Assembly (NCBI GenBank): GCA_030689845.1
Contig: JAUYHV010000317.1
Location: 1-44,951, forward strand
DNA: 44,951 nt
Source: Dehalococcoidia bacterium
GTDB taxonomy: Bacteria > Chloroflexota > Dehalococcoidia > JACQUA01
Direction: 5' to 3'
Position 1 is the first letter of the stretch. Every line of letters begins with the position of its first letter. The position numbers were made by a program, and so were the translations under genes. Below, in pieces: positions 1-44,861 of this stretch. Below the pieces are notes generated by a model. The model was given only the letters and a program-made list of their open reading frames with translations. It was not told where the DNA came from and searched no databases.

Positions 1-799
1 ATATGCCCGGGAGAGTAAAACCGCGGTGATTATTGGGGCTGGACCCATCGGCCTTGAAACAGCAGCGGCTCTAACCAAACTTAAACTTAAAGTTACCATC
101 ATAGAAGCTCTGCCGAGGCTTTTGCCCAGGCAGCTTGACACTGCGGCAGCAGGATTAATGAAAAAGGAACTGGAAGAAAAATTCGGGTTTTCTTTTTTCC
201 TGAATTCCCAGTGTCAGGAAATCACCGGGAACGGGAAGGCTACCGGTGTCCTGCTGGCGACAGGCCAGGTAATCCCGGGGGATTTAATCATTGTTTCAGC
301 CGGAATCAGGCCGAAACTGGACCTGGCCAAAGCCATCGGTCTCAAAACCGAGAGGGGTATAGCGGTGGATGAGCACATGGAAACCAGCCGGAGCGGGATT
401 TATGCCGCCGGGGACGTGGCCGAATTTAATGGCATGGTCTATGGTTTGTGGCCGGCTGCTCAGCAGCAGGGAGAAGTTGCCGGTGTGAACATGGCCGGGG
501 GAAAACAGGAATACGGGGGGACCGTGCCCTCGAATGCCTTGTCCATCCTCGGGATTAATGTCATGAGCGCCGGGGACATAGACGTGGAGGGAAAACACCA
601 GGGCCTGGTTAAAGAGGATAAAGCTAACTATACGTACCGTAAATACGTTGTAAGCAATGACATACTTATTGGCACTGTGCTCCTCAACGATATCAGGGGT
701 GGTGGGGAGATTATGGGGGCGATAAGGCAGAAAAAGAATGTCCTGCCGTACAAAGATGCCATACTGCAAGACAGTTTCGACTTCAAAAGTTTAAGTTAA
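1..799 (+). CDS. FAD/NAD(P)H-dependent pyridine nucleotide-disulfide oxidoreductase, C-terminal part (rubredoxin-reductase / NADH-oxidase-like); 5' end lies outside the window
   Basis: The frame is open from base 2 with no stop (YARESKTAVIIGAGPIGLE...). It has a second Rossmann GxGxxG (IIGAGPIGLE) and the AAGDVAE motif. A rubredoxin-like ORF follows 18 nt downstream. Confidence 0.8.
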   Translation, partial: YARESKTAVIIGAGPIGLETAAALTKLKLKVTIIEALPRLLPRQLDTAAAGLMKKELEEKFGFSFFLNSQCQEITGNGKATGVLLATGQVIPGDLIIVSAGIRPKLDLAKAIGLKTERGIAVDEHMETSRSGIYAAGDVAEFNGMVYGLWPAAQQQGEVAGVNMAGGKQEYGGTVPSNALSILGINVMSAGDIDVEGKHQGLVKEDKANYTYRKYVVSNDILIGTVLLNDIRGGGEIMGAIRQKKNVLPYKDAILQDSFDFKSLS

Positions 800-6351: not shown

Positions 6352-7401
6352 GTGGCTAAACTTAAGGACAACAGGATTAGCAGGCGTTCTTTTATTAAAG
6401 GTATCGCTGCAACAGGGGCATTGGCAGTTGCGGGAATGGCGGGATGTAATGAAGCCGGGGAGGCCCCAACTATCGTTGCCGGCAATTCCGGGGAGGGAAA
6501 AATGTCAGAGATAGCTTTTGTAAGCACGGATAACAGGGCTGATGGTGTCGAAAAAGCGATGGACCTGGTCGGGACCGGAAAATTTAAAAACAAGACCATA
6601 TTTATTAAACCGAATTTTAACAGTGCCGACCCGACCCCGGGTTCGACTCACATCGATGTCCTCCGTTCCATCGTAAAACGGCTGTGGCAGGAGGGAGCTT
6701 CAGGGATTACAGTAGGCGACCGGAGCGGCATGGGGAATACCAGGAAAGCAATGGAACAAAAAGGGATCTTCCAGTTAGGGAGGGAACTTGATTTCGAAGT
6801 TCTTGTGCTGGACGAACTTCCGGAAAGCGGGTGGCAAAAGTTTACGCCTTCCGGCAGCCGCTGGTCCCAGGGTTTTTATATTCCGAAGGTATGCCTGGAA
6901 GTAGATGACATAATACAAACTTGCTGTTTGAAAACACACCGCTTCGGGGGGCACTTTACCATGTCTCTTAAAAATTCCGTGGGCCTGGCGGCAAAGCGGG
7001 TTCCGGGCGACGGCCACGATTACATGGGCGAACTTCATTCATCGCCGTACCAGAGGACCATGATTGCAGAGATAAACCAGGCTTACAAACCATCCCTGGT
7101 AATCCTCGATGGAGTCGAGGCTTTTGTCAGCGGGGGGCCCGATAAAGGAAAGAAGGTGGATTCCAACATAGTTCTGGCGGGGTCAGACAGGGTTGCCATC
7201 GATGCGGTTGGCGTTGCCGTTTTGAGGTATTTCGGTACCACTCCGGAAGTTGAATACGGCAGCATCTTTGAGCAGGAGCAAATCTCCAGGGCGGTGCAGC
7301 TGGAGTTGGGAGTGGACTCAGGCCGCAGGATATCCCTGGTTACCCCGGACAGGCAAAGCGAGGAATATGCTGGACGGATACACGGTATCCTGTACGGCTA
7401 A
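6352..7401 (+). CDS. DUF362 domain protein with a twin-arginine signal and lipobox
   Basis: GTG start. N-terminus has SRRSFIKGIAATGALAVAGMAGC (Tat motif plus AGC lipobox). The DUF362-like core has IFIKPNFNSADP... and HRFGGHFTMSLKN. Confidence 0.75.
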   Translation: MAKLKDNRISRRSFIKGIAATGALAVAGMAGCNEAGEAPTIVAGNSGEGKMSEIAFVSTDNRADGVEKAMDLVGTGKFKNKTIFIKPNFNSADPTPGSTHIDVLRSIVKRLWQEGASGITVGDRSGMGNTRKAMEQKGIFQLGRELDFEVLVLDELPESGWQKFTPSGSRWSQGFYIPKVCLEVDDIIQTCCLKTHRFGGHFTMSLKNSVGLAAKRVPGDGHDYMGELHSSPYQRTMIAEINQAYKPSLVILDGVEAFVSGGPDKGKKVDSNIVLAGSDRVAIDAVGVAVLRYFGTTPEVEYGSIFEQEQISRAVQLELGVDSGRRISLVTPDRQSEEYAGRIHGILYG

Positions 7402-16321: not shown

Positions 16322-16849
16322 TTGTTTAATATCGGAGTATTAACTGTCAGCGATAAGGGGGCGAGGGGAGAAAGAACGGACGAAAGCGGACCGGCCATCA
16401 GGGAAATCCTGGAATCTATCGGTGGGAAGATGATTGAATATGCTGTTGTACCGGATGAGCGGATAATAATTTCGGCCACCCTGTCCCGGTGGGCTGACAC
16501 AGGGAACCTGGATATCATATTGACCAGCGGCGGCACGGGTTTGAGTCCCAGGGACTTCACTCCCGAGGCCACTCTATTTATTGTTGACAGGCTGGTTCCG
16601 GGGTTGCCGGAAGCCATAAGAGCTGAAAGTTTTAAAAAATCACCGGCGGGAATTTTAAGCAGGGGCGTTGCTGGAATAAGGAAGTCCTGCTTAATAATTA
16701 ATTTACCCGGCAGCGTAAAGGCGGTAAGGGAATGTCTTGACATAATTCTGCCAGCTTTGCCCCATGCCCTGGAGGTGCTGAAGGGTGATGCGACGGAGTG
16801 CGCAACCCGCCCGGACATCCATAACTTAAACAAAGGGGACGGGTGTTAG
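16322..16849 (+). CDS. Molybdenum cofactor biosynthesis protein, MogA/MoaB family
   Basis: Motifs VLTVSDKG...ESGP and [20 protein letters not shown] start. Confidence 0.88.
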
Positions 16850-30706: not shown

Positions 30707-32167
30707 TCATGGCGACCTTATCTTTGGCAATTCCGTAAATGAAGTTAAGGGCTTTACTGATAAAGCCAGAGAGATATTTAATGGTTCAATGCCATTCAAG
30801 ATGCCGGTCTGAATAATACTCATTATCACTGCCTGGTTTGAAGCCCCCAAAGCTGAACGGTTGCCAAAAGTTATCTTTCTCATGATAACATTAGGCCTCA
30901 ATTGCCGCTCGGCCCGATTATTGGTCGGCTCAACCAGGGGATTATCCAGGAAGGTGAACAACTCCTGATTGAATTTTATTATCCGCTTACGGATACGCCG
31001 CGCATCCTTATGCTCGATGGGTAATGACAGCAACTCCATCATCCTTGAGATGGCCCGCTCCTTTTCCTTGACCAAATCTTCAAAAACCTTTGTCCCTTCA
31101 TGGTATTCATTCCAAACGTTAATCATCTGCTTCAATAAGGTCTTCAGTTCCTGACAAAATATCCCGTCAATACTATCTGGAACAAATTTATTCTTCTCCT
31201 GGATTTTCTTAATCTCAGCCAGAAGGTGACCCAGGCAACGCTGCTTGGCCAGGGCCTTTGGTTTGTTGTAAGCCGAATAAAAATCACTAATCAAAACCCC
31301 TTGATACTTCTCACCCAAGATATCGCTGACAACCTTGCTTCCACGACTTTTGTCAATCTGATAGAAGGCCGCATCTTTATTGGTAAAGACCCACAACCAG
31401 TGATTCTGACCATTAACCCGCCAACCTGTCTCATCACCATTGACACAAGCTGAATGACGGATCCCCTCCTTTATCGCCTCATAAATTGGGGCACCATTTT
31501 GGGCTTGCTCGGCATTAAAAGCCAAAAATGATGGGTGAGTGAGATTTATACCAAAGATGTTTTTGAATATCCTGGTGGCCTTCCGATAGGGCAGACCAAG
31601 ATAGCGCAGGTAACCACCCACCGCACGAGCCTGAACCCCGATTCGGTCACCTGGAATTACAGCTTCTTTGGCTTTGGGATAAACCACCTTTTTACACTGC
31701 TTACAGTAGCCATAATGTAGCCGATAACAGGTCACCTTCTTCTTTATCTCGATATCTTCTACCACGTGCTCATCAAAACTTTTCTCATAGGCCTTAATCT
31801 GACCACCACACCTATCGCATTTATCAGGATAGATTTCAATAAGTTCAGTGATCTCTTCTGGCCGTCTGCGACTATTTCCACGATGACCGCAAGGGGCACC
31901 GCGTTTCGGACGGTTAACATCGTGATCTGGCTTTACTTGAGGCTTGAAAATCTTACCCAGCATTTGCTTCAATTGATAACTCAGCGTCTCTTTTTCCTCT
32001 TTAATATTTTGGTTTTCTTGCCGCAACTTTTCAATCTCTGCCTGAGCCAGCGCCATCACCTTTTCCATTTCATCGATCCGCTGGCTTAAGTAATCCCGCT
32101 CACGAATTAGACGCCAAACATCTCCACCCTTTAGATAGGGACAACGAGTACCGTGATGACACTCCAC
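30707..32167 (-). CDS. IS66-family DDE transposase (TnpC type)
   Basis: N-terminal coiled coil or leucine zipper, zinc finger CDRCGG...CKQC, DETGWRVNGQNHWLWVF, ISDFYSAYN and TNNRAERQLRPNVIMRK. Confidence 0.92.
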   Translation of the reverse strand: MECHHGTRCPYLKGGDVWRLIRERDYLSQRIDEMEKVMALAQAEIEKLRQENQNIKEEKETLSYQLKQMLGKIFKPQVKPDHDVNRPKRGAPCGHRGNSRRRPEEITELIEIYPDKCDRCGGQIKAYEKSFDEHVVEDIEIKKKVTCYRLHYGYCKQCKKVVYPKAKEAVIPGDRIGVQARAVGGYLRYLGLPYRKATRIFKNIFGINLTHPSFLAFNAEQAQNGAPIYEAIKEGIRHSACVNGDETGWRVNGQNHWLWVFTNKDAAFYQIDKSRGSKVVSDILGEKYQGVLISDFYSAYNKPKALAKQRCLGHLLAEIKKIQEKNKFVPDSIDGIFCQELKTLLKQMINVWNEYHEGTKVFEDLVKEKERAISRMMELLSLPIEHKDARRIRKRIIKFNQELFTFLDNPLVEPTNNRAERQLRPNVIMRKITFGNRSALGASNQAVIMSIIQTGILNGIEPLNISLALSVKPLTSFTELPKIRSP

Positions 32168-32168
32168 T

Positions 32169-33080
32169 CTATTTGCCTTCCATCTGTCGCCCTCTCTGCT
32201 CGCCCACCCGCTGGTTGAGGGCCTCCCGAAATCTTTCTGTCAGCGGGTAAAGGTAAATATGTTTGACGGGCACTTTAAGGGTGGCATGCCTGTCGTTGCG
32301 GCTGCGCCCCTTGCTTTGACCTACCAAAATCCAGTTGGCAGCCTGGTAACAGATGCCCCGGAAGCAATCCCGCTCCACAAAGGTTTCCAGCAGATAGATG
32401 GGATGGCCGTATTTCTCCATCCAGTCCCCGCTGATACGCCTGGCGCCTCTTCCCAGGATATGACTGGCCAGATGCGGAACTCTGACCCAGGGCAAAATCA
32501 AAAACCGCATGTTGTTGGTCAGGAACTGGAGATTTGCTTCTCTTGTAGCTGCATCCCAGCCGATAAAGTCATCCCGGGGGGCATTCTTCCAGGCTGCCGA
32601 GCCAAAGAGAAGGCAGGCAAGGGGATTTCGCTCCCGGTCAAAAACCATATACTTCATGTTCTCTCCCACAGTGCCATTGAAACCCAGATAATGATACTGG
32701 GAAAGCAGACCCTTGAAGAGCCCCAGAAGACCTGGGTCTTCAACCAGCTCGACATATACCGGTGCCAGGGCGCTCAAAGCGCAGGCAATAGGCTCAGTTT
32801 TATGGGGGACGCAGGGAATAGAGAGCTTACGACAGCCCCAACCGGAAGGTGATTGACGCGCAGGCAAGGTGATATGGCCCCGCTGCTCTAATTTTAAAAG
32901 AAGGGTACGGCAGGCCATATCCTTGACCTGGCCATTGGCGGCACGCCAATTCCACAGAACGCATAGCTCCCGGGAAAGCCGGGTGCGATTCTGGGAAGGA
33001 TTGGCTTCGATCAGCCGCTGGACTAATTCAATGTCATCCTGCGTTATTCCCCGTCCCTGAACGGTCATTGTCTTTTCCAT
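32169..33080 (-). CDS. DUF4338 (DruA-like) protein with an N-terminal winged-helix-like segment
   Basis: Motifs LLSQYHYLGFNGTVGENMKYMVF, FLILPWVRVPHLASHIL and LETFVERDCFRGICYQAANW. The stop lies 1 nt from the transposase start. Family recalled from memory, not searched. Confidence 0.75.
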   Translation of the reverse strand: MEKTMTVQGRGITQDDIELVQRLIEANPSQNRTRLSRELCVLWNWRAANGQVKDMACRTLLLKLEQRGHITLPARQSPSGWGCRKLSIPCVPHKTEPIACALSALAPVYVELVEDPGLLGLFKGLLSQYHYLGFNGTVGENMKYMVFDRERNPLACLLFGSAAWKNAPRDDFIGWDAATREANLQFLTNNMRFLILPWVRVPHLASHILGRGARRISGDWMEKYGHPIYLLETFVERDCFRGICYQAANWILVGQSKGRSRNDRHATLKVPVKHIYLYPLTERFREALNQRVGEQRGRQMEGK

Positions 33081-33820: not shown

Positions 33821-34591
<771 letters not shown>

Positions 34592-34838
34592 AATCGAAAC
34601 CCTGGCAACGGGGATAATCATGGTAATCCAGTTCCGGAGATGATAGGTCCGGGTACAACCCCGGGGATAAGCGCTAACGGCCCCGGGTATCTGCGCAATG
34701 GAATACGTTGCCATGAGGTTTTAAAGCAGGGGTAAATAGCTCAACCTTTCCGGCTGGGTTCCTAACAAATCCACGGGTATGAAATTGGTTTATGCACGTA
34801 TTTATTGAATAAGCTTTATATCAGGAGGAAAAACACAA

Positions 34839-35102
34839 ATGGCCTATAAAATTACCGAAGAATGTATCGCCTGCGGAGCCTGTGAGCCCGAATGTGACAA
34901 TAAGGCGATAACAGAAGGGGACCCGGTTTATATTATCGACCCCGATAAGTGTACCGAGTGTGTGGGTAATGCCGACATGCCCATGTGTGTTGAAGCCTGT
35001 TCCGTTGACTGCTGTGTGCCGGACCCGGACCACAAGGAAACTAAAGAGCAACTGCTCGAAAAATGGAAAAAGCTAAATCCAGGCAAAGAACCAAAAGCCT
35101 GA
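34839..35102 (+). CDS. 2x[4Fe-4S] ferredoxin paralog, copy 2 (both Cys-Pro motifs altered)
   Basis: [12 protein letters not shown] and CTECVGNADMPMCVEACSVDC. My hand alignment to copy 1 gives 23 mismatches in 87 aa. AGGAGG Shine-Dalgarno sequence. Confidence 0.9.
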   Translation: MAYKITEECIACGACEPECDNKAITEGDPVYIIDPDKCTECVGNADMPMCVEACSVDCCVPDPDHKETKEQLLEKWKKLNPGKEPKA

Positions 35103-37710: not shown

Positions 37711-39084
37711 TCAGAGTGAAGGTTTTTTACCTGCAAGGAAAAAAACCAGGACGATGATAATGCCTATTGCCAGGGCAGCGATTCCTATTATTAACGGCCA
37801 GTTTCTAGGCTGAGACGCCGGGGGTTCAGGAGTAGGGGAAGGTACAGGGGCGGGTGCTGCAGTGGGTGTCGCAACAGGGCGCGGTGCAGATGTGACCACC
37901 GGCTCTGGTGTTACTGGAGCGGTGGGGGCGGCTGTCGGAGGACTCGTTGGAGCCGATGTCGGAGCAGCAGAAGGCATTGGAACTGGTGTTGGAGTTGGTG
38001 TTGGAGTTGGAGTTGCTGTAATCATGGGGATTGGGGTTAGCCAGGGTAAGGGTGTCGTTGGAGGCGGTGGTGGAGCCGAAGTGCTTCTTACCGCGATATT
38101 ACCGGTGATTAAGACTGCAGGTATATCATCTCCGTTGGACGCAGAAAGGGTGGTAGCCTTTATTTCCAGGGGCCATCTCCCCGGAGACATACCTCTGACT
38201 GTAACGTAGGCAACGATAACATCTCCTTTTGGTCCGGGCACCTGTATCGTATAATCGTTAAAATAAACCCATCCGGCAGAATTGTTTACATTCGCTACTT
38301 CGAGGGCACCGAAGGCCTCGTTAGCTCCTTCTATCTTGTCAACGCGGACACCCTCAGGTTTAAAACTAAGATTAAAATCGTAAGCGCCGAAACCGCTGGG
38401 AGCGCTTATGTTTTTAACAGTGATGGGTATCCTGGCTGTAGTCCCAACACTCAGTGTAGCTGACCCAACTTCCAAGGAGGTTCCGGCAGTAGGGACAGAT
38501 GCGGTGGCGGTAGCGGTGGGTTGGGGGGGAGCCTGGGTGCTGGTGGGTGAGGGTATAGCAGGCACGGTGCCAACAGGAGCGCCGGAAACCGTCAGTGTCC
38601 CCGGGGCGGCAACTGCGGCAACGTTGCTCCCATTAACATCTGCAAGGGTTGTAATATTTACGTTGATAGGCCAGTTTCCAACGCTAATAGCCGTCAGATT
38701 AATCCTGGCAACGATGATACTCCCTATCGGCCCCGGCACCTGAGTGTGAATTGCGTTAATATATATTGTCCCTATAGCTTCTTTAACACTCACCGCTGCA
38801 AAAGAGCTAAAAGGCGGGTCTCCAGGGTTTACATTATTGACTTGAAATGCTGAAATGTCGTAGGTAATCTGAAAATCGTAGGCACACAGACCGGTTTCCG
38901 CAGTAATATTTTTAACGGTGACAGGTATTTGTATTTGCTGACCCGGCGCGGCTGTAGCCGAGCTCACCTCTACGATTGTCTCCTGGGCGAAGGCGGATAT
39001 ATTAAAGCTCGCCCCAAGGTTGACGAGTAGAAAGGATACAACCAGGGTATAAAATATTCTCTTTTTTATCGCCAGGAGCCGCAT
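37711..39084 (-). CDS. Cell-surface protein with two cohesin-like modules, Pro/Thr linkers and a C-terminal transmembrane anchor
   Basis: Signal peptide present. There are two ~140-aa repeats, each with a G(L/F)(C/G)AYDF(Q/N) signature (GLCAYDFQITYD and GFGAYDFNLSFKP). TPTPTPTPTPVP-type linkers precede a final helix WPLIIGIAALAIGIIIVLVFFL. AAGGAG precedes the ATG at 39084; the ORF-track start is 39105. Confidence 0.7.
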   Translation of the reverse strand: MRLLAIKKRIFYTLVVSFLLVNLGASFNISAFAQETIVEVSSATAAPGQQIQIPVTVKNITAETGLCAYDFQITYDISAFQVNNVNPGDPPFSSFAAVSVKEAIGTIYINAIHTQVPGPIGSIIVARINLTAISVGNWPINVNITTLADVNGSNVAAVAAPGTLTVSGAPVGTVPAIPSPTSTQAPPQPTATATASVPTAGTSLEVGSATLSVGTTARIPITVKNISAPSGFGAYDFNLSFKPEGVRVDKIEGANEAFGALEVANVNNSAGWVYFNDYTIQVPGPKGDVIVAYVTVRGMSPGRWPLEIKATTLSASNGDDIPAVLITGNIAVRSTSAPPPPPTTPLPWLTPIPMITATPTPTPTPTPVPMPSAAPTSAPTSPPTAAPTAPVTPEPVVTSAPRPVATPTAAPAPVPSPTPEPPASQPRNWPLIIGIAALAIGIIIVLVFFLAGKKPSL

Positions 39085-39280
39085 TATTATCTCCTTTACG
39101 GACATTTCTTTGTTGCCTGTTCAATAGATTGTAACAAAGAAGCGTCCAATGTCAAGTGTGGAGTTCATGAATTAAATGGAACATTGTTTGGTTTTTTAGG
39201 TCCCAAAGTGACCGGATAATAAATATACCGGTAATTGTAAATTACAGAAATATTCAAAAGCACACTTATTGTGAAAATAT

Positions 39281-40909
39281 TTAATATGGTCGCCCTTTTT
39301 CCTCCCAGGGTTTTTTGAGGCCGAAATCTTCTGCCATAACTTTGTAGCAATTGTAAGCCTGGTATGAGTGTGCTCCCGGCGACGGGTGCCACGCTGAACC
39401 GGTGCCGTAAAGATTTGTTACGGGAGTGCGGTGGGAAGACAGTTCGGTAATGGGTCTCCGCCTGCCCTGCTGTGTCGGAATGCAGTCAATAACCGCCCAG
39501 TTTCCGGAAGGAGCCATGTTGGCCAGGTGGCAAATATCTGGTGGAGTTTCAGGGTAATACCCTATAATGTTATCCCAGTTCATGTTGGTAGCGTATTTCT
39601 GCCATTCCTGAACGACATCCTCTGCGTGCTGTTTCTTAAAAACCATCCATTCTTTTTCGGAAAGGGCGGTCGCCGGAGGCACGAATTGTTCGGTACCTGC
39701 GGAATGTTTTCCCGGGGGAGCCTGGGTGGGGTCAACAATAGAATAGCACCAGGCGACAAGATTCATTTCAGGCGAGATTTTCCCCAGTCGCCGCCAGTGC
39801 GCTTCGCGAACCAGGCTCTCGGGGTCTTTATTACCCAGGGCCAGAAGCTGGGTATTGTTTACGTCGGGATTAAAGGCTGCTGCTTTATATTCAGGGGCAT
39901 CGTGCAGCGCCCAGCCGTACCAGGCAAGACAGGTATAACGAGTCTCAAGATTTTCCACTTTTTTAAGAATTTTTTGAGACAGGTACTCGGGACCTATTAT
40001 TTGAAAACAGAGCTGGTAGGGGCTCAACGTGCTTACTACTGCCTTGTTCGCTTTTATTAACGATCCATTAACGAGCTGGACGCCTGTAGCTTTACCGTTT
40101 TCAATCGTGGCTTTTTTTACCTCCGCCATGGTGAAGAGCTTGCCTCCGTTTTGTAAAAAGATGCGGGCAGCGGCATGGGTGACGCTGTGAGAGCCGCCGA
40201 TAGTAAAATCGCTTTCTGCCAGGGTTAACGGATAGATAAATTGATTTAGACCGCTGCCAAAAATGTCCGGCGGGATACCGTCTGCTGACTGGCGCCCCCG
40301 CAGGTGAGCGCAGGTGACTTCAGGACTCTCGTAAAGCTCTCTGCCTACCTGGAGGCAATTCATTGAAGACCATTGGGGGTCAATAGGGCAGTCCGGGTCG
40401 GCGAAAAGTTTATCGAAGCCATCTCTAACCCCGATACGGGGAGGATTGAACATCCTTTCCATGAGAGCCGGCCTCAGCTTCTTCTTGTAATAGTCGTGCA
40501 GTTTTAACCATGTTTCGGCATCTTTCTGGGAAAACCGGGCGATCTCTTTTGCTGTTCGCTCCTGGTTAGGATCAACTTGTTCCTGGTAAAAAACGAGGCA
40601 AGACTGGTCTTCCCTGAATATCATTCCTGTCCCTGCTTCACAAATGGCGTATTTAGCCCCTTTTTCTTCGAAATCCGGAAAGTCCTGGTATAGCGGCTCA
40701 TAATACATCTTACTGGTGTGCTGCGTGGAATGGGTATTGTGGATAAAACCCGGCGCCGCGGCTTCCTCCGAAGAGAGCCCTCCCCCCAGTTCATAACGGC
40801 TCTCAAATATACCCACAGTCATGCCGCCGTATTTTGTTAAATACATACCAAGCATTAAGGCCTTGGTTCCTCCGCCGATTATTACTACGTCAAAACTGGC
40901 ATCTGGCAT
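39281..40909 (-). CDS. Phytoene-desaturase-family (CrtI/COG1233-like) FAD-dependent oxidoreductase, paralog A
   Basis: N-terminal dinucleotide fold FDVVIIGGGTKALMLG...FESRYELGGG. 542 aa, GGAGG Shine-Dalgarno sequence. Alignable along its length with 42926-44557. Confidence 0.8.
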   Translation of the reverse strand: MPDASFDVVIIGGGTKALMLGMYLTKYGGMTVGIFESRYELGGGLSSEEAAAPGFIHNTHSTQHTSKMYYEPLYQDFPDFEEKGAKYAICEAGTGMIFREDQSCLVFYQEQVDPNQERTAKEIARFSQKDAETWLKLHDYYKKKLRPALMERMFNPPRIGVRDGFDKLFADPDCPIDPQWSSMNCLQVGRELYESPEVTCAHLRGRQSADGIPPDIFGSGLNQFIYPLTLAESDFTIGGSHSVTHAAARIFLQNGGKLFTMAEVKKATIENGKATGVQLVNGSLIKANKAVVSTLSPYQLCFQIIGPEYLSQKILKKVENLETRYTCLAWYGWALHDAPEYKAAAFNPDVNNTQLLALGNKDPESLVREAHWRRLGKISPEMNLVAWCYSIVDPTQAPPGKHSAGTEQFVPPATALSEKEWMVFKKQHAEDVVQEWQKYATNMNWDNIIGYYPETPPDICHLANMAPSGNWAVIDCIPTQQGRRRPITELSSHRTPVTNLYGTGSAWHPSPGAHSYQAYNCYKVMAEDFGLKKPWEEKGRPY

Positions 40910-40973
40910 TGGACGCCTCCATTCGTATAAAATAATTCAAACAAAACTGTTGCACTTTTATCAAAGGTGATTT

Positions 40974-42842
40974 CTACCCGGCTAATTTTGTTTTGGCTGA
41001 AGTTAAATCCGTTGCTATATCACTCAATCCAAGTTCAATCAATTTGTTGTCCGTCGGGAAGCCATCTTTATCCCATCCCCTTGCCTGGTAGTACTCATCC
41101 AGCATTATATCGGGTGTTTTTATTATTTGCCCTTCGGCAGGTCCTGCATTTATCAACGGTTCGCTGGTAAACCTCCGGGGAAAAGCGTCTTCGGCCCTGC
41201 CTACACCTTCTCTTAAGTTGAAAGCCCTTTCCATGTTATATATTCTTTGCCCAACCTTAACCATATATTCGGGGTCGTTTAACTCCGGGATAGCTCGGGC
41301 AGAGGCAATCATCCTGGAGAAATCTGGCATCCTTGTCATGCCAAGTTGCGGGGTAAAAAGACAAATAATACCCGTTTCAAAAGTCGCAGCAGTATCTTGA
41401 TTATATATCACCACATCGGCATAGCCGTTATCTGCGTATCTATCAACTGGCCTGGGATACTTGCTGCCGAACAGTTCCTGCACAGAGTAACCTATGTTGT
41501 GGCTTGCTCCAATGGTCGAAGTGGCATAGGACAGCCCCTGCCATTTGACGCCCCTCGGATCGTACGCTGGTATTTCCAGACCCTTAATGTGCATAGCATA
41601 ATAGCTGGCATTTTTCCCTATTCGCTGGGCAGCTAATTTGACTCCCTCCGCAAGAAGGTTGCCCAGGCCCTGCCTGTAAGCTGTTTTTTTAATAAGGTCT
41701 GCAATTATATCGTGCCGGCCCCAGGTAAGTTCGATACCATCCGTATCCCTGGATGTCAGAATTTCCCGTTCGTAAAGCTCGTAAGCAAACCCAATGGTGC
41801 TTCCCATGGTCATTGTATCCATCCCGAGTTCGTCGCAAAGCTGGTTTGCCATGATGGTAGCGCCGATCTCGGTGCTCAACATGTTTCCCGTAAATGCCCA
41901 GATGGTCTCGTAGTCCGGCCCCTCTGCTTGTGCCCCGGCGTATGGTCCGGAGGACACAACGTATTTGTTGCCGCAGTGAATTGGGCAGGCGTAGCAACTT
42001 ACATCTTTTACTTTTAATTTGGCGTATTCATCGCCGCAAAATTTTTCCCACCCTTCGAGAGTGCCAAAACGGAAATTTTTTGTGGGAAAAATTCCGTTGC
42101 GGTTAGTATTGTCCTGATTGTAAGTAGTGCCGTGGTCCGAGAAGCCCGGATAAGCCCTGCTGCCGGTTATAGCCGCTACCTGTTCTTTAACAAGGGCTTT
42201 GAACTCTTCAGGATCCGGTAACTCGACATTTCTCGTTGCGTCCAGGGTAATAGCCTTGAGGTTTTTAAAGCCCATTACAGCTCCGAGCCCACCTCTTCCG
42301 GCGCAGTGCGTGCCGCTGAAAATACCGGCGTAGCGGACCAGGTTCTCCCCGGCAGGACCTATGCAAATCGTTCGAACATTTTTCCCATGAATATCCGAAA
42401 GGAATGTTTGGGTTTCGGAAGTAGTCTTTCCCCAGAGTTGTTTTGCTTCCAGTATTTTTGGTGTCCCGTCTTTTAACATCAGATAAACAGGGGAGTTAGC
42501 TTTACCTTCAACAATAATTAATTCAAAACCGCTCCATCGGAGCCATGCTCCGAAATCGGCACCGCCCACGGACCGGAAATATGTGTTCGTAAGAGGACTT
42601 TTACTTGTTGCCATCCAGCGGGAGGTACACTGGGCACCTGTGCCGGACAGCGGGCCTATCGATATGATGAGTTTATTGTCCGCGCTTAAAGGTTCTGTAC
42701 CGGGTATAAGTTCATCGTAAAGGTATTTGACAGCCAAACCCCGCCCACCGACATAGTCTCTCAGGAACTTATCAGGCAGGGCTTCTTCACGGAAACTTCC
42801 GCTGGTTAGATTTATTCTTAGGATTTTTGGTATATAAGCCAT
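40974..42842 (-). CDS. aor: Tungsten/molybdopterin aldehyde:ferredoxin oxidoreductase (AOR family)
   Basis: N-terminal pattern ILRINLTSGSFREE...YVGGRGLAVKYLYDE, plus a Cys-containing 4Fe-4S and pterin-binding core (CYACPIHC). 622 aa. Confidence 0.9.
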   Translation of the reverse strand: MAYIPKILRINLTSGSFREEALPDKFLRDYVGGRGLAVKYLYDELIPGTEPLSADNKLIISIGPLSGTGAQCTSRWMATSKSPLTNTYFRSVGGADFGAWLRWSGFELIIVEGKANSPVYLMLKDGTPKILEAKQLWGKTTSETQTFLSDIHGKNVRTICIGPAGENLVRYAGIFSGTHCAGRGGLGAVMGFKNLKAITLDATRNVELPDPEEFKALVKEQVAAITGSRAYPGFSDHGTTYNQDNTNRNGIFPTKNFRFGTLEGWEKFCGDEYAKLKVKDVSCYACPIHCGNKYVVSSGPYAGAQAEGPDYETIWAFTGNMLSTEIGATIMANQLCDELGMDTMTMGSTIGFAYELYEREILTSRDTDGIELTWGRHDIIADLIKKTAYRQGLGNLLAEGVKLAAQRIGKNASYYAMHIKGLEIPAYDPRGVKWQGLSYATSTIGASHNIGYSVQELFGSKYPRPVDRYADNGYADVVIYNQDTAATFETGIICLFTPQLGMTRMPDFSRMIASARAIPELNDPEYMVKVGQRIYNMERAFNLREGVGRAEDAFPRRFTSEPLINAGPAEGQIIKTPDIMLDEYYQARGWDKDGFPTDNKLIELGLSDIATDLTSAKTKLAG

Positions 42843-42925
42843 GAGTTCTCACTTTTTAAAAATAATATTACATCCCTTTGCTTGTTTGTTATAGAAAAAC
42901 CCGTCAGGCGATGAGAAACTGCACG

Positions 42926-44557
42926 TTATAACAGGCCTGCCTCTTTTGCCTTCGTAACCATTTCCGGTTCCCTCCACCACTTGTTTATACCCTTATCCTC
43001 GGCAACAGCATTGGCCGCCAGATAACCCGCACCCCAGATAACACAACCGCCGGGATAGCTGCTGGAACCGCCCAGGTAAAGGTTTTTTACGGGGGTCCGT
43101 GCGTTAGAACATTCTTCATTAGGCCTTAAATAACCCATTTGCAGTGGGTGATATAACCCCTGTTTAAAAGATCCTTCCACCATATCCGGGAACTTATTTT
43201 GTATGTCCTTGGGAGTGGTCATATATTTCCAGAGTATCTTTTCCGATGTCATGTTGGGCGCGTATTTTGAAAGGGTGTCAAGGCAACTTTGAGCAACCTG
43301 TTCTTTAAATTCCATGTTGTACCATTTTTCGGCCCCGCCGTCTTTCAGGTTGTATGGAGCGAACCTGGAGATAATACCGGTGTGGCGCCCCGGAGGTGCC
43401 TGAGTAGGGTCGTGAACGGACGGGAAACAGCAGTTGAAAGCTGCCCGGGCTGGAAGTTCGCCATTTTCTATTTTGTCATAATCTTCCATGAGGCTCCCGG
43501 GTGTTTCATAACCGAGGATATAGATGAAAGATTTATTTATTTCCGGGTTCGAAGCAGCAGCGGAAAAATCAGGACTCTCTGCCAGGGCTAATTGAATGGT
43601 TAAAAGGCTGTGTGTTTCCCACTGCCACCCTTTTATGCTTTCTACAAAATCTTTATCCAGGTTCTTTTCACCAACCAGTTGCAGGAAAGTCTGGTGTGGG
43701 TCGATAGTGCTGATTATTGCTTGACTGGCTTTAACGATAGTCCCGTCATGGAGTTCAACGCCCGTGGCAACCCCACCTTCGATTATTATGCGAGCAGGTT
43801 TTTCATTATCCAGCAACACTCCGTGGTTCTCGTGGATAACTTTATGCAGGCCCTGGGCTGCGCGGTGGGAACCGCTTTCAACAAGGCGATAGTTGGCAGC
43901 ACGGTCGAGATAAAGAAGAGAAAGATACCCGAGGCCGGATTGATCATAGGGGACTCCCCAGTGTGTAGCCACGTAAAGCATTAAAGCCCGGACATGTTCG
44001 TTTTCAAAGTGTTCTTCGACCAACTCCCTTGGCGTTTTTTCCGAGGCTTCCAGCATGAAACGGCCGCTTTCAGTACCCTGGAGTTTGACTACCTGGTCCA
44101 GGGCCGGAACAGGCGGGGCGTAAGTAGCCGGTGCGATAAAATCGGCAACCGCTTGCTTACACTGCTGAATAAGGTCCCGGTACGACGCGGCATCTTTTTG
44201 GGAAAACTCAGCTATGGACCGGGCAGTTTTTTCCGGGTCGGAATAAAGACATAAACAACGCCCGTCCGATAAGGGCAACGCAAACTGGAGGGGAGGATAA
44301 ATATGACGGCACCCGTATACTTCTTCCAGCTTGAAATCCTGGTATACCGGAGCATAGTCCACCATCATCATGTAAACGGCGTGGGTATTGTGAAGATAAC
44401 CAGCCAGGGTAACTTCCTCTGTTGCAAGTCCACCCCCTGCTTCATGACGGGCTTCCAGGATGAGAACTTTTAAACCTGCTTTACTGAGGTAAGCCCCTGT
44501 TTCCAAACCATTGGGACCGGCGCCTATGATGATTACGTCGTAGTTTGTCTCAATCAA
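42926..44557 (-). CDS. Phytoene-desaturase-family (CrtI/COG1233-like) FAD-dependent oxidoreductase, paralog B
   Basis: YDVIIIGAGPNGLETG...LEARHEAGGG. TTG start with GGAGGGAG Shine-Dalgarno sequence. 543 aa. Confidence 0.8.
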   Translation of the reverse strand: MIETNYDVIIIGAGPNGLETGAYLSKAGLKVLILEARHEAGGGLATEEVTLAGYLHNTHAVYMMMVDYAPVYQDFKLEEVYGCRHIYPPLQFALPLSDGRCLCLYSDPEKTARSIAEFSQKDAASYRDLIQQCKQAVADFIAPATYAPPVPALDQVVKLQGTESGRFMLEASEKTPRELVEEHFENEHVRALMLYVATHWGVPYDQSGLGYLSLLYLDRAANYRLVESGSHRAAQGLHKVIHENHGVLLDNEKPARIIIEGGVATGVELHDGTIVKASQAIISTIDPHQTFLQLVGEKNLDKDFVESIKGWQWETHSLLTIQLALAESPDFSAAASNPEINKSFIYILGYETPGSLMEDYDKIENGELPARAAFNCCFPSVHDPTQAPPGRHTGIISRFAPYNLKDGGAEKWYNMEFKEQVAQSCLDTLSKYAPNMTSEKILWKYMTTPKDIQNKFPDMVEGSFKQGLYHPLQMGYLRPNEECSNARTPVKNLYLGGSSSYPGGCVIWGAGYLAANAVAEDKGINKWWREPEMVTKAKEAGLL

Positions 44558-44861
44558 TTTTGCTCCCTCCTGATAGCGTGCTATGTTAAACGTTGGTTGA
44601 TTGAAGGGTTATTTTAACGGCATTGACCCGGTGTATGGATAATCTTGTTCAATGAGCTAATATAGAGTTTAAAGAAACTTACGTGTTTGTAATAAATTTT
44701 GGCAGAGTTTTTATAGCACGGATAATAAAACGATGTCAAATCTGGTGATTCAAATGCATTGGGGGTAGCCTGTGGCACAAATAACGCTATTTTAACCAGC
44801 CTTAGAGATAGACCGGGTTGCCTATTAAAACTGGAGTAAAAGTGTTCGGCTGTCAGGAATA

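Follow-up and report, generated by a model that had tools for sequence, protein, structure and literature searches.

We analysed a 44,951-nt stretch of DNA from a Dehalococcoidia bacterium (GCA_030689845.1, contig JAUYHV010000317.1), hereafter the window, which carries three adjacent genes encoding, in order of transcription, a flavoprotein (A), an aldehyde:ferredoxin oxidoreductase (AOR) and a second flavoprotein (B). The list of open reading frames (ORFs) placed all three on the minus strand, with 83 nt between A and AOR and 64 nt between AOR and B, and bore out the directions, lengths and gaps given in the original prediction. Gene A (42926..44557, 543 aa) begins with TTG, and a Shine-Dalgarno sequence, AGGAGG, was read 8 nt 5' of this start codon (44566..44571, minus strand). 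The AOR gene (40974..42842) encodes 622 aa and gene B (39281..40909) 542 aa, with GGAGG upstream of the B start. The canonical dinucleotide-binding motif GAGPNG is present in A; B, a diverged paralog and the presumed partner subunit, has GGGTKA. A scan for promoters and terminators returned counts no higher than those of shuffled controls and did not inform the operon borders.

Relationship of flavoproteins A and B to CtmAB and delta-24-SD

A and B were 32% identical (E 2e-74) over residues 1–530 and 1–537, respectively, with GAGPNGL of A opposite GGGTKAL of B, as expected from the earlier description of them as full-length but diverged paralogs. That description had also likened the pair to the limonene dehydrogenase CtmAB of Castellaniella defragrans, which reportedly hydroxylates an allylic methyl group without O2, the alcohol and aldehyde then being oxidised to the acid. 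To our knowledge, only two members of this family have been characterised, CtmAB and its sister enzyme, the sterol delta-24 desaturase (delta-24-SD), both from denitrifying Betaproteobacteria, and we know of no other flavin enzymes that attack allylic C–H bonds of terpenes or sterols without oxygen. The delta-24-SD of Sterolibacterium denitrificans is an alpha4beta4 protein of two paralogs, each with flavin mononucleotide (FMN) bound covalently to a histidine, and the flavinylation motif G-F-L/R-x-N/S-T/L-H-A is common to delta-24-SD and both CtmAB subunits (PMC11061730).

We compared A and B with the delta-24-SD sequences given in Table S2 of PMC11061730. Over 522 residues, A shared 36% identity with the beta subunit (E 1.6e-113); with the alpha subunit it shared 29% (E 1.6e-48). 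B was 27.7% identical to alpha (E 3e-40) and 27.2% to beta (E 4e-42). The distance between A and beta thus equals that between beta and CtmB (38%; PMC11061730). The comparison with CtmAB itself was indirect, through a relative in NaphS2. Proteins of NaphS2 were the best matches of CtmB (41%) and of CtmA (30%) (Petasch et al., PMC4109377), and the match of CtmB reported in 2014 belongs to the clade that includes A. NaphS2 has its pair in the order B-A (locus L001), with 62% identity between its A-type protein and A of the window and 38% between its B-type protein and B; we could not confirm that the NaphS2 match of CtmB (WP_006422074) is the L001 protein EFK09251.

The flavinylated histidine aligned across A, B and both delta-24-SD subunits. 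In A it is His59 of the motif GYLHNTHA (residues 53–60; 44378..44401, minus strand), aligned with the FMN-bearing His58 of delta-24-SD beta, and in B it is His60 of GFIHNTHS (residues 54–61; 40727..40750, minus strand), aligned with the FMN-bearing His57 of delta-24-SD alpha. The deviations from the published consensus, Y for F in A and S for A in B, are conservative. T58, H59 and A60 were invariant in 19 homologs of A, and H60 was nearly invariant in 24 B-type homologs. In related loci, 76 of the 94 encoded A-type proteins and 59 of the 69 B-type proteins have kept the histidine. Judged by these alignments, a flavin is probably attached covalently to His59 of A and His60 of B.

Neither protein has a cysteine cluster motif, and their maximal Kyte-Doolittle hydropathy over 19 residues is 1.0–1.4, as for soluble proteins without iron–sulfur (Fe-S) clusters. 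A and B therefore combine the features of the family: full-length homology, the histidine motif, paired paralogs and no Fe-S motif. Like them, delta-24-SD is soluble and consists of two paralogous CrtI-fold subunits of ~55–63 kDa that both carry the histidine and its motif and lack Fe-S motifs; its genes in Sterolibacterium are consecutive (21262, 21263). CtmAB, too, is heteromeric, built of two COG1233 paralogs that share 27% identity (PMC4109377), against 32% for A and B.

General family models described A and B less well. A matched Pfam NAD_binding_8 and Amino_oxidase. The best NCBIfam names for the two proteins were CrtO, CrtD and crtI_fam, all with scores far below the cut-offs: 216 for A and 131 for B with the CrtO model (cut-off 1000), and 90.8 for A and 30.3 for B with crtI_fam (TIGR02734, cut-off 238.1), which places both outside that family. 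A PDB sequence search gave CrtI as the best match (E 4e-7), and amine oxidases reached at best E 1e-5, over the N-terminal Rossmann segment only. The AlphaFold2 models were confident, with a predicted local distance difference test score (pLDDT) of 81.4 and a predicted template modelling score (pTM) of 0.85 for A, and a pLDDT of 88.5 and a pTM of 0.89 for B. Both models had a CrtI-like fold with 4rep as the top PDB match (template modelling score, TM, 0.71 for A and 0.73 for B). Carotenoid desaturases (4rep, 4dgk) ranked first among the structural neighbours of A and B, with flavin amine oxidases, NicA2 and putrescine oxidase next. CrtI-type desaturases share with A and B the fold (TM 0.5–0.73) and the N-terminal dinucleotide-binding motif, but 4rep and 4dgk are only 15–18% identical to them. 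CrtI is a single-subunit, membrane-peripheral enzyme with non-covalent flavin adenine dinucleotide (FAD). These results indicated that A and B, although CrtI-like in fold, are not carotenoid enzymes and form their own subfamily without a solved structure.

More than 2000 homologs of A were found, some of which are labelled 'phytoene dehydrogenase-like' or 'beta-carotene ketolase' in some sources. For B, seven proteins were 73–81% identical and the next were at most 54% identical; B of the trio thus belongs to a small clade. On the homology to delta-24-SD and the conserved histidine motif we assign A and B with considerable confidence to the CtmAB/delta-24-SD family, with A, to judge from its sequence, as the CtmB/delta-24-SD-beta-type subunit and B as the more diverged partner. 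The CtmAB-like lineage that the original prediction had favoured over a carotenoid one was upheld by these identities, by the shared histidine and by the window, in which no crt gene was found, crtB, crtE and a cyclase gene included.

Relatives of A were sought by scanning one genome per GTDB species; 480 were found, and 79 loci were fetched. Their hosts were mostly Dehalococcoidia and other Chloroflexota and Thermodesulfobacteriota, with Syntrophales, Binatia and Nitrospiria in addition; the Thermodesulfobacteriota loci included those of NaphS2, a phenanthrene-degrading enrichment (TRIP) and a metagenome-assembled genome (MAG) from a tar biofilm. Many genomes had multiple copies. Of the 79 distinct loci, 69 had a B-type gene adjacent to the A-type gene or close by, as had 46 of the 48 loci of at least 12 kb, most commonly in the order B then A. 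Because A-type and B-type genes are almost constantly adjacent in other genomes, A and B very likely form a heteromer.

Two deviating arrangements were seen. Locus L171 (GCA_041642995.1) has an orphan B-type gene (L171:6235-7863), 73% identical to B of the window, among genes of UbiD-family decarboxylases; elsewhere in the same MAG, L165 has an A-x-AOR-B trio and L004 a B-A-SDR-AOR module, SDR standing for short-chain dehydrogenase/reductase. In Binatia and relatives (L066, L068, L069, L070, L075, L084), up to three consecutive distant CtmAB-like pairs directly follow a B-A pair. These distant paralogs are 25–26% and 39–41% identical to A of the window, and some lack the flavinylation histidine (e.g. 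GFTYTAWV).

Recurrent linkage of AOR to flavoprotein pairs

The middle gene encodes a member of the canonical AOR clade of the tungsto- or molybdo-pterin type, with matches to Pfam AFOR_N (8.8e-71) and AFOR_C (5.1e-118). Its nearest solved structure was Pyrococcus furiosus AOR (1aor, E 4.5e-126). In the alignment with this protein, the CxxCxxxC motif (C283, C286 and C290; 41973..41996, minus strand) and C494 (41361–41363, minus strand) corresponded to CYACPIGCG and LCLFT, which predicts all four ligands of a [4Fe-4S] cluster. EGPDYET and GASHN also aligned with 1aor, and the residues matching the catalytic Glu and His were kept. The earlier assignment of this gene to the AOR family was thereby confirmed. 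A reading of the protein as a BamB-type reductase was rejected, since BamB was its most distant solved relative and 1aor the best match.

The protein was full-length against 1aor and the bacterial AORs (9g7j, 9mqx; AorB 8c0z), with E values of 1e-105 to 1e-126 and lengths of 605–622 aa. It differs from these known AORs in being encoded between two flavoprotein genes, and no genes for AorA- or AorC-type subunits are present with the trio. For the latter reason, free ferredoxin is the most likely electron acceptor of the AOR.

The order A-AOR-B occurred twice more, in L003 and L165. The L003 proteins were 77% (A), 70% (AOR) and 79% (B) identical to those of the window, and the downstream cohesin, queH and ruvB genes were shared as well. 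RuvB of L003 was 76% identical to that of the window. Since the trio is conserved on a par with RuvB, it is under purifying selection. It also appears functionally intact, given this conservation, the retained cluster ligands and catalytic residues of the AOR, and the confident models of A and B. In L165, a 126-aa '23S rRNA intervening sequence protein' gene (L165:7532-7912) separates A from AOR, indicating that the operon tolerates insertions at this junction.

Over all gene orders, A-AOR-B included, an AOR gene was found near the pair in 11 of the 79 loci and in 10 of the 48 long ones. In 10 of these 11 (all but L050), it has the same direction as the flavoprotein gene closest to it, frequently at a distance of 12–200 nt. 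The other arrangements were AOR-B-A (L067), AOR-A-B (L076), B-A-AOR (L012) and B-A-SDR-AOR (L004, L010, L021). Seen from the AOR, the nearest homologs (56–70% identity) mostly adjoined flavoprotein pairs. Within the close AOR clade, five of the six members with readable context lay beside a pair: those of the window, L003, L165, L169 (SDR-AOR-A-B) and L170 (SDR-AOR-B-A). The sixth, L167, had just 484 nt of upstream sequence. As a background control we used 80 distant AOR loci (33–46% identity; ~0.49 Mb of flanking sequence) from a metagenome scan with the AOR. None of them had a pair-type neighbour, compared with five of the six close relatives (Fisher p = 1.7e-7).

In the core lineage, the A proteins were at least 64% identical to A of the window and the AORs 48–78% identical to one another, and the linkage was kept while the gene order shifted. 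Other pairs adjoined AORs that were only 31–48% identical; such recruitment of dissimilar AORs points to selection for the combination. These results indicated that the linkage of AOR to the pair is real and recurrent and typical of a subset of the family, the sandwich order being a local variant of a narrow Chloroflexota clade. The conservation of the trio in relatives therefore held for the linkage, in several orders, but the exact A-AOR-B order was restricted to the window, L003 and L165. We consider it probable that the AOR and the pair are functionally linked. Full-text literature searches gave no description of an AOR linked to a CtmAB-like pair, in line with the earlier statement that no operon of this architecture has been characterised.

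A possible oxygen-independent route and its alternatives

We propose that the three genes form one operon and encode two enzymes of the same oxygen-independent catabolic route. A and B would make up a soluble hetero-oligomeric dehydrogenase with covalent flavins (AB). As in its two characterised relatives, AB would act on a hydrophobic substrate and oxidise a C–H bond that adjoins a C=C bond or an aromatic system, either by hydroxylation with water or by desaturation; the substrate may be a terpenoid, an isoprenoid, a steroid side chain or an alkyl-aromatic compound. The AOR would take an aldehyde arising later in the route to the carboxylic acid and pass low-potential electrons to free ferredoxin, which would save energy otherwise lost with a dehydrogenase dependent on nicotinamide adenine dinucleotide (NAD). 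The step from alcohol to aldehyde could be carried out by the SDR in sister operons; here, the enzyme may be encoded elsewhere, or the flavoprotein itself may oxidise its product to the aldehyde. Flavins linked to histidine are known for raised potentials and for acting as oxidants, and for this reason the oxidative direction is favoured. We put this complete sequence from AB through the aldehyde to AOR forward tentatively, rating its chances at a little below even.

Two ferredoxins are candidate electron acceptors of the AOR. They are encoded by tandem paralogous genes for small 2x[4Fe-4S] proteins between coaD and cvpA (~34310–34588 and ~34830–35099, plus strand), with CxxCxxCxxxC motifs and matches to the Pfam Fer4 family. 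The genes lie on the strand opposite to the trio and 4–5 kb from it, with cvpA, ruvB, queH and a cohesin-domain gene in between. The ferredoxins 'encoded nearby' in the original prediction thus exist but are outside the operon, and a functional tie to the trio can only be presumed.

Several observations weigh against the proposed route. The nearest characterised relative that was compared directly with A, delta-24-SD, is a desaturase, not a hydroxylase, and B, at 27–28% identity to both of its subunits, could not be assigned to the alpha or the beta type. The organisms that supplied the two characterised enzymes are denitrifiers, and the assays used acceptors of high potential; according to Harder and co-workers, CtmAB needs an acceptor of positive potential and may not work in strongly reduced organisms (PMC12583861). 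There is no alcohol dehydrogenase in the trio operon and no SDR anywhere in the 45-kb window, and the operon encodes no electron-transfer partner, be it an electron-transferring flavoprotein, a cytochrome or a ferredoxin. The genes around the trio are housekeeping genes, without a transporter, regulator, CoA ligase or beta-oxidation gene among them, and the sequence upstream of A ends at the window edge. Only ~14–21% of the pair loci have an AOR within reach, and AOR is not a general partner of the family. The close B-type gene in L171 has neither an A-type nor an AOR gene nearby. Finally, neither the substrate nor the type of reaction can be read from sequence. As to the thermodynamic objection, strict anaerobes do drive acyl-CoA dehydrogenations that are similarly 'uphill', using reverse electron transfer or confurcation, from which we infer that it is not fatal. 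Taken together, the idea of an anaerobic route that combines a two-subunit flavoenzyme with an AOR gained from the lineage, the pairing and the non-random linkage, and lost from the missing alcohol dehydrogenase and the position of the ferredoxin genes.

Although the trio does not represent a categorically new system, three features set it apart from both characterised ones: the physiology of its host, the lack of ctmC-G or molybdenum (Mo)-hydroxylase partners and the presence of an AOR instead of an NAD-dependent aldehyde dehydrogenase. CtmAB oxidises an allylic methyl group without O2, followed by alcohol, aldehyde, acid and CoA-ester steps (PMC4109377), and the proposed route resembles this order. 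The ctm cluster, however, includes a 2Fe-2S ferredoxin and a reductase (ctmEF), and the alcohol and aldehyde steps there fall to GeoA and GeoB, which depend on NAD; the trio has no equivalent of ctmC-G, and a tungsten- or Mo-pterin AOR takes the place of the aldehyde dehydrogenase. Sterolibacterium, in turn, is a denitrifier, unlike the strictly anaerobic Chloroflexota host here, and its follow-up enzymes are Mo-dependent C26 hydroxylases, whereas here an AOR is encoded between the subunit genes.

The foremost alternative, though an unlikely one, is a desaturase of the delta-24-SD type with a loosely coupled AOR. AB would then place a double bond in an isoprenoid or steroid-like side chain or in an acyl chain, without forming an alcohol; the AOR would act on an aldehyde formed later or in parallel, or detoxify aldehydes in general, and the operon would reflect shared regulation rather than consecutive reactions. 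The activity of delta-24-SD, the sole relative compared directly, and the lack of an alcohol dehydrogenase gene in the trio operon fit this explanation, as do the many Dehalococcoidia pair loci that have no AOR but genes for thiolase-like and ChsH2-type DUF35 proteins, acyl-CoA dehydrogenases, MaoC hydratases and CoA-transferases and look like modules for side-chain beta-oxidation. It is difficult, without a metabolic tie, to account for the repeated, independent and tight co-directional linkage of AOR to pairs, mostly with an SDR as well, all the more as such neighbours were absent from all 80 unrelated AORs.

We regard as improbable a reductive module, in which the AOR would reduce a carboxylic acid to the aldehyde with reduced ferredoxin, or AB would be a C=C reductase (saturase) serving as an electron sink. 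Some CrtI-family enzymes are saturases and AORs are known to be reversible; a geranylgeranyl-reductase-family gene adjoins the sister module L170, and it is not obvious what high-potential acceptor a strict anaerobe would have for a CtmAB-type oxidation (PMC12583861). Against this, the conserved histidine for a covalent flavin points to a high-potential oxidising flavin, delta-24-SD showed no reductive activity with Ti(III) citrate or dithionite (PMC11061730), and the neighbours of the pairs are catabolic (CoA ligases, CoA-transferases, thiolases).

An anaerobic amine dehydrogenase is slightly less probable still. Here AB would oxidise a C–N bond, as flavin amine oxidases and NicA2 do, and yield the aldehyde directly for oxidation to the acid by the AOR, so that the absence of an SDR from the trio would need no explanation. 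The Amino_oxidase match of A and the rank of amine oxidases, NicA2 and putrescine oxidase next after the carotenoid desaturases in structure agree with this. However, delta-24-SD is far closer in sequence (E 1e-113) than any amine oxidase, A and B both have the family-specific flavinylation motif, sister operons of the same AOR lineage do carry an SDR, and no aminotransferase, ammonia-related or amine-transport genes were found nearby. Biosynthesis of carotenoids or other isoprenoids by enzymes such as CrtI, CrtN, CrtO or CrtD, with the AOR adjacent by chance, has the best NCBIfam names, the nearest folds and some homolog labels in its favour but is effectively refuted by the sub-cut-off scores, the low identity to solved desaturases, the lack of crtB, crtE and cyclase genes in the window, the catabolic neighbours in the 79 loci and the non-phototrophic anaerobic hosts.

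Returning to the proposed oxidative route, a more radical form of it can be conceived by analogy. Enzymes of the p-cresol methylhydroxylase/vanillyl-alcohol-oxidase type use a covalent flavin to oxidise a methyl group with water and take the alcohol on to the aldehyde in one enzyme. A, B and AOR might similarly be a self-contained three-component machine that takes a methyl or other unactivated allylic or benzylic carbon to the carboxylate without O2, the heteromer carrying out both two-electron steps to the aldehyde and the AOR the last one, with the low-potential electrons offsetting the high-potential first step energetically or by confurcation. If alcohol and aldehyde were formed in one enzyme, as in p-cresol methylhydroxylase, the absence of an alcohol dehydrogenase would be explained. 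The analogy is mechanistic only: p-cresol methylhydroxylase has an FAD_binding_4 fold and a cytochrome acceptor subunit and no homology to A or B. Such a machine is a long shot; if real, it would explain both CtmAB-type chemistry in strict anaerobes without nitrate or oxygen and the placement of the AOR gene between those of the subunits.

With the trio, a large anaerobic branch of a rare class of enzymes comes into view that has so far gone unstudied. The CtmAB/delta-24-SD family is much expanded in uncultured strict anaerobes, namely Dehalococcoidia, other Chloroflexota, Thermodesulfobacteriota (including naphthalene- and phenanthrene-degrading cultures), Binatia and Nitrospiria, often with several pairs per genome, and one lineage stayed tied to a tungsten-type AOR, usually with an SDR. 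This offers a testable hypothesis of how subsurface anaerobes start to degrade terpenoid, steroid-like or alkyl-aromatic matter and bears on the thermodynamic question of CtmAB-type enzymes in reduced habitats (PMC12583861). Being compact, with three genes, the module lends itself to heterologous expression.

Neighbours of pair loci and surroundings of the trio

SDR was the commonest annotated neighbour of the pairs (24 loci), and in many loci it was followed by CoA ligases, CoA-transferases and beta-oxidation genes. Further neighbours were zinc-dependent alcohol dehydrogenases (Zn-ADH), family I and III CoA-transferases, thiolase-like and ChsH2-type DUF35 proteins, acyl-CoA dehydrogenases, enoyl-CoA hydratases, MaoC hydratases, UbiD, FAD proteins of the vanillyl-alcohol-oxidase/p-cresol methylhydroxylase type, reductases like old yellow enzyme, a Mo enzyme of the dimethyl sulfoxide (DMSO)-reductase family and PaaK-like ligases. 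No carotenoid genes were among the recurrent neighbours in the 79 loci. The pair loci are thus catabolic clusters for hydrophobic or aromatic acids or hydrocarbons, not biosynthetic ones. The context gave weak hints of isoprenoid substrates, namely the geranylgeranyl-reductase-family gene of L170, the ChsH2-type side-chain modules and a PaaK-like ligase; the subfamily calls for the neighbouring SDR and Mo enzyme were generic and gave no clue to the substrate.

The geranylgeranyl-reductase-family flavoprotein is encoded at L170:6164-7261 and the PaaK-like CoA ligase at L004:15209-16477. The DMSO-reductase-family molybdopterin enzyme (~737 aa, cytoplasmic-looking, with an N-terminal 4Fe-4S domain) recurs beside AOR-linked pairs, at L004:17455-19686, L067:16358-18571 and L170:9022-10805 and in L012. 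A large cluster recurs in Dehalococcoidia (L026, L033-L047, L055, L079) with at least three CtmAB-like paralogs in the order CoA-transferase III, Zn-ADH, flavoprotein, CoA-transferase A/B, flavoprotein, small ORF, flavoprotein, two thiolase-like genes, ChsH2-type DUF35, acyl-CoA dehydrogenase and MaoC hydratases; it resembles modules for the degradation of steroid or isoprenoid side chains.

A conserved, unannotated ORF of ~83 aa was found next to CtmAB-like pairs in 38 of ~75 loci, with no match in Pfam or NCBIfam. Its product has an N-terminal motif M-x-x-RSTGLGKTEL, a central PVKW[HR]xR and often a C-terminal HPGDF. Examples are L064:11671-11922 and L040:9015-9266, and the ORF is in tandem in L001:11749-12335, L012, L018, L021 and L050. 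In these other loci, the product may be a third subunit or a factor for flavinylation or assembly. As a third subunit of the operon studied here it was rejected, the ORF being absent from the window.

The gene directly downstream of the trio (37711–39105, minus strand) encodes a surface protein in which two cohesin modules are combined with long linkers rich in Pro and Thr and with a membrane anchor at the C terminus. The gene is preceded by a strong promoter-like site of the sigma-70 type of its own (39155–39128), and its syntenic counterpart in L003 is only 46% identical. The rest of the window consists of chromosomal housekeeping genes (nrd, nrdR, ftsAZ, mraZ/W, trmD, rplS, priA, fabF, recJ, thrS, coaD) and an element of the insertion sequence family IS66. 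A fragment annotated as part of a Dehalococcoidia MAG is 99–100% identical to the window. Before the gene for the IS66-family transposase (486 aa) lies one for a 303-aa protein matching Pfam DruA (Druantia), and this stretch (30707–33080, minus strand) is a mobile insertion within the otherwise housekeeping region. Elsewhere, the window encodes a MoaB/Mog-like molybdopterin biosynthesis protein (16322–16849), a DUF362 protein with a twin-arginine translocation (TAT) signal (6352–7401, plus strand) and, at its beginning, the C-terminal part of a rubredoxin-reductase-like pyridine nucleotide-disulfide oxidoreductase (26–799, plus strand).

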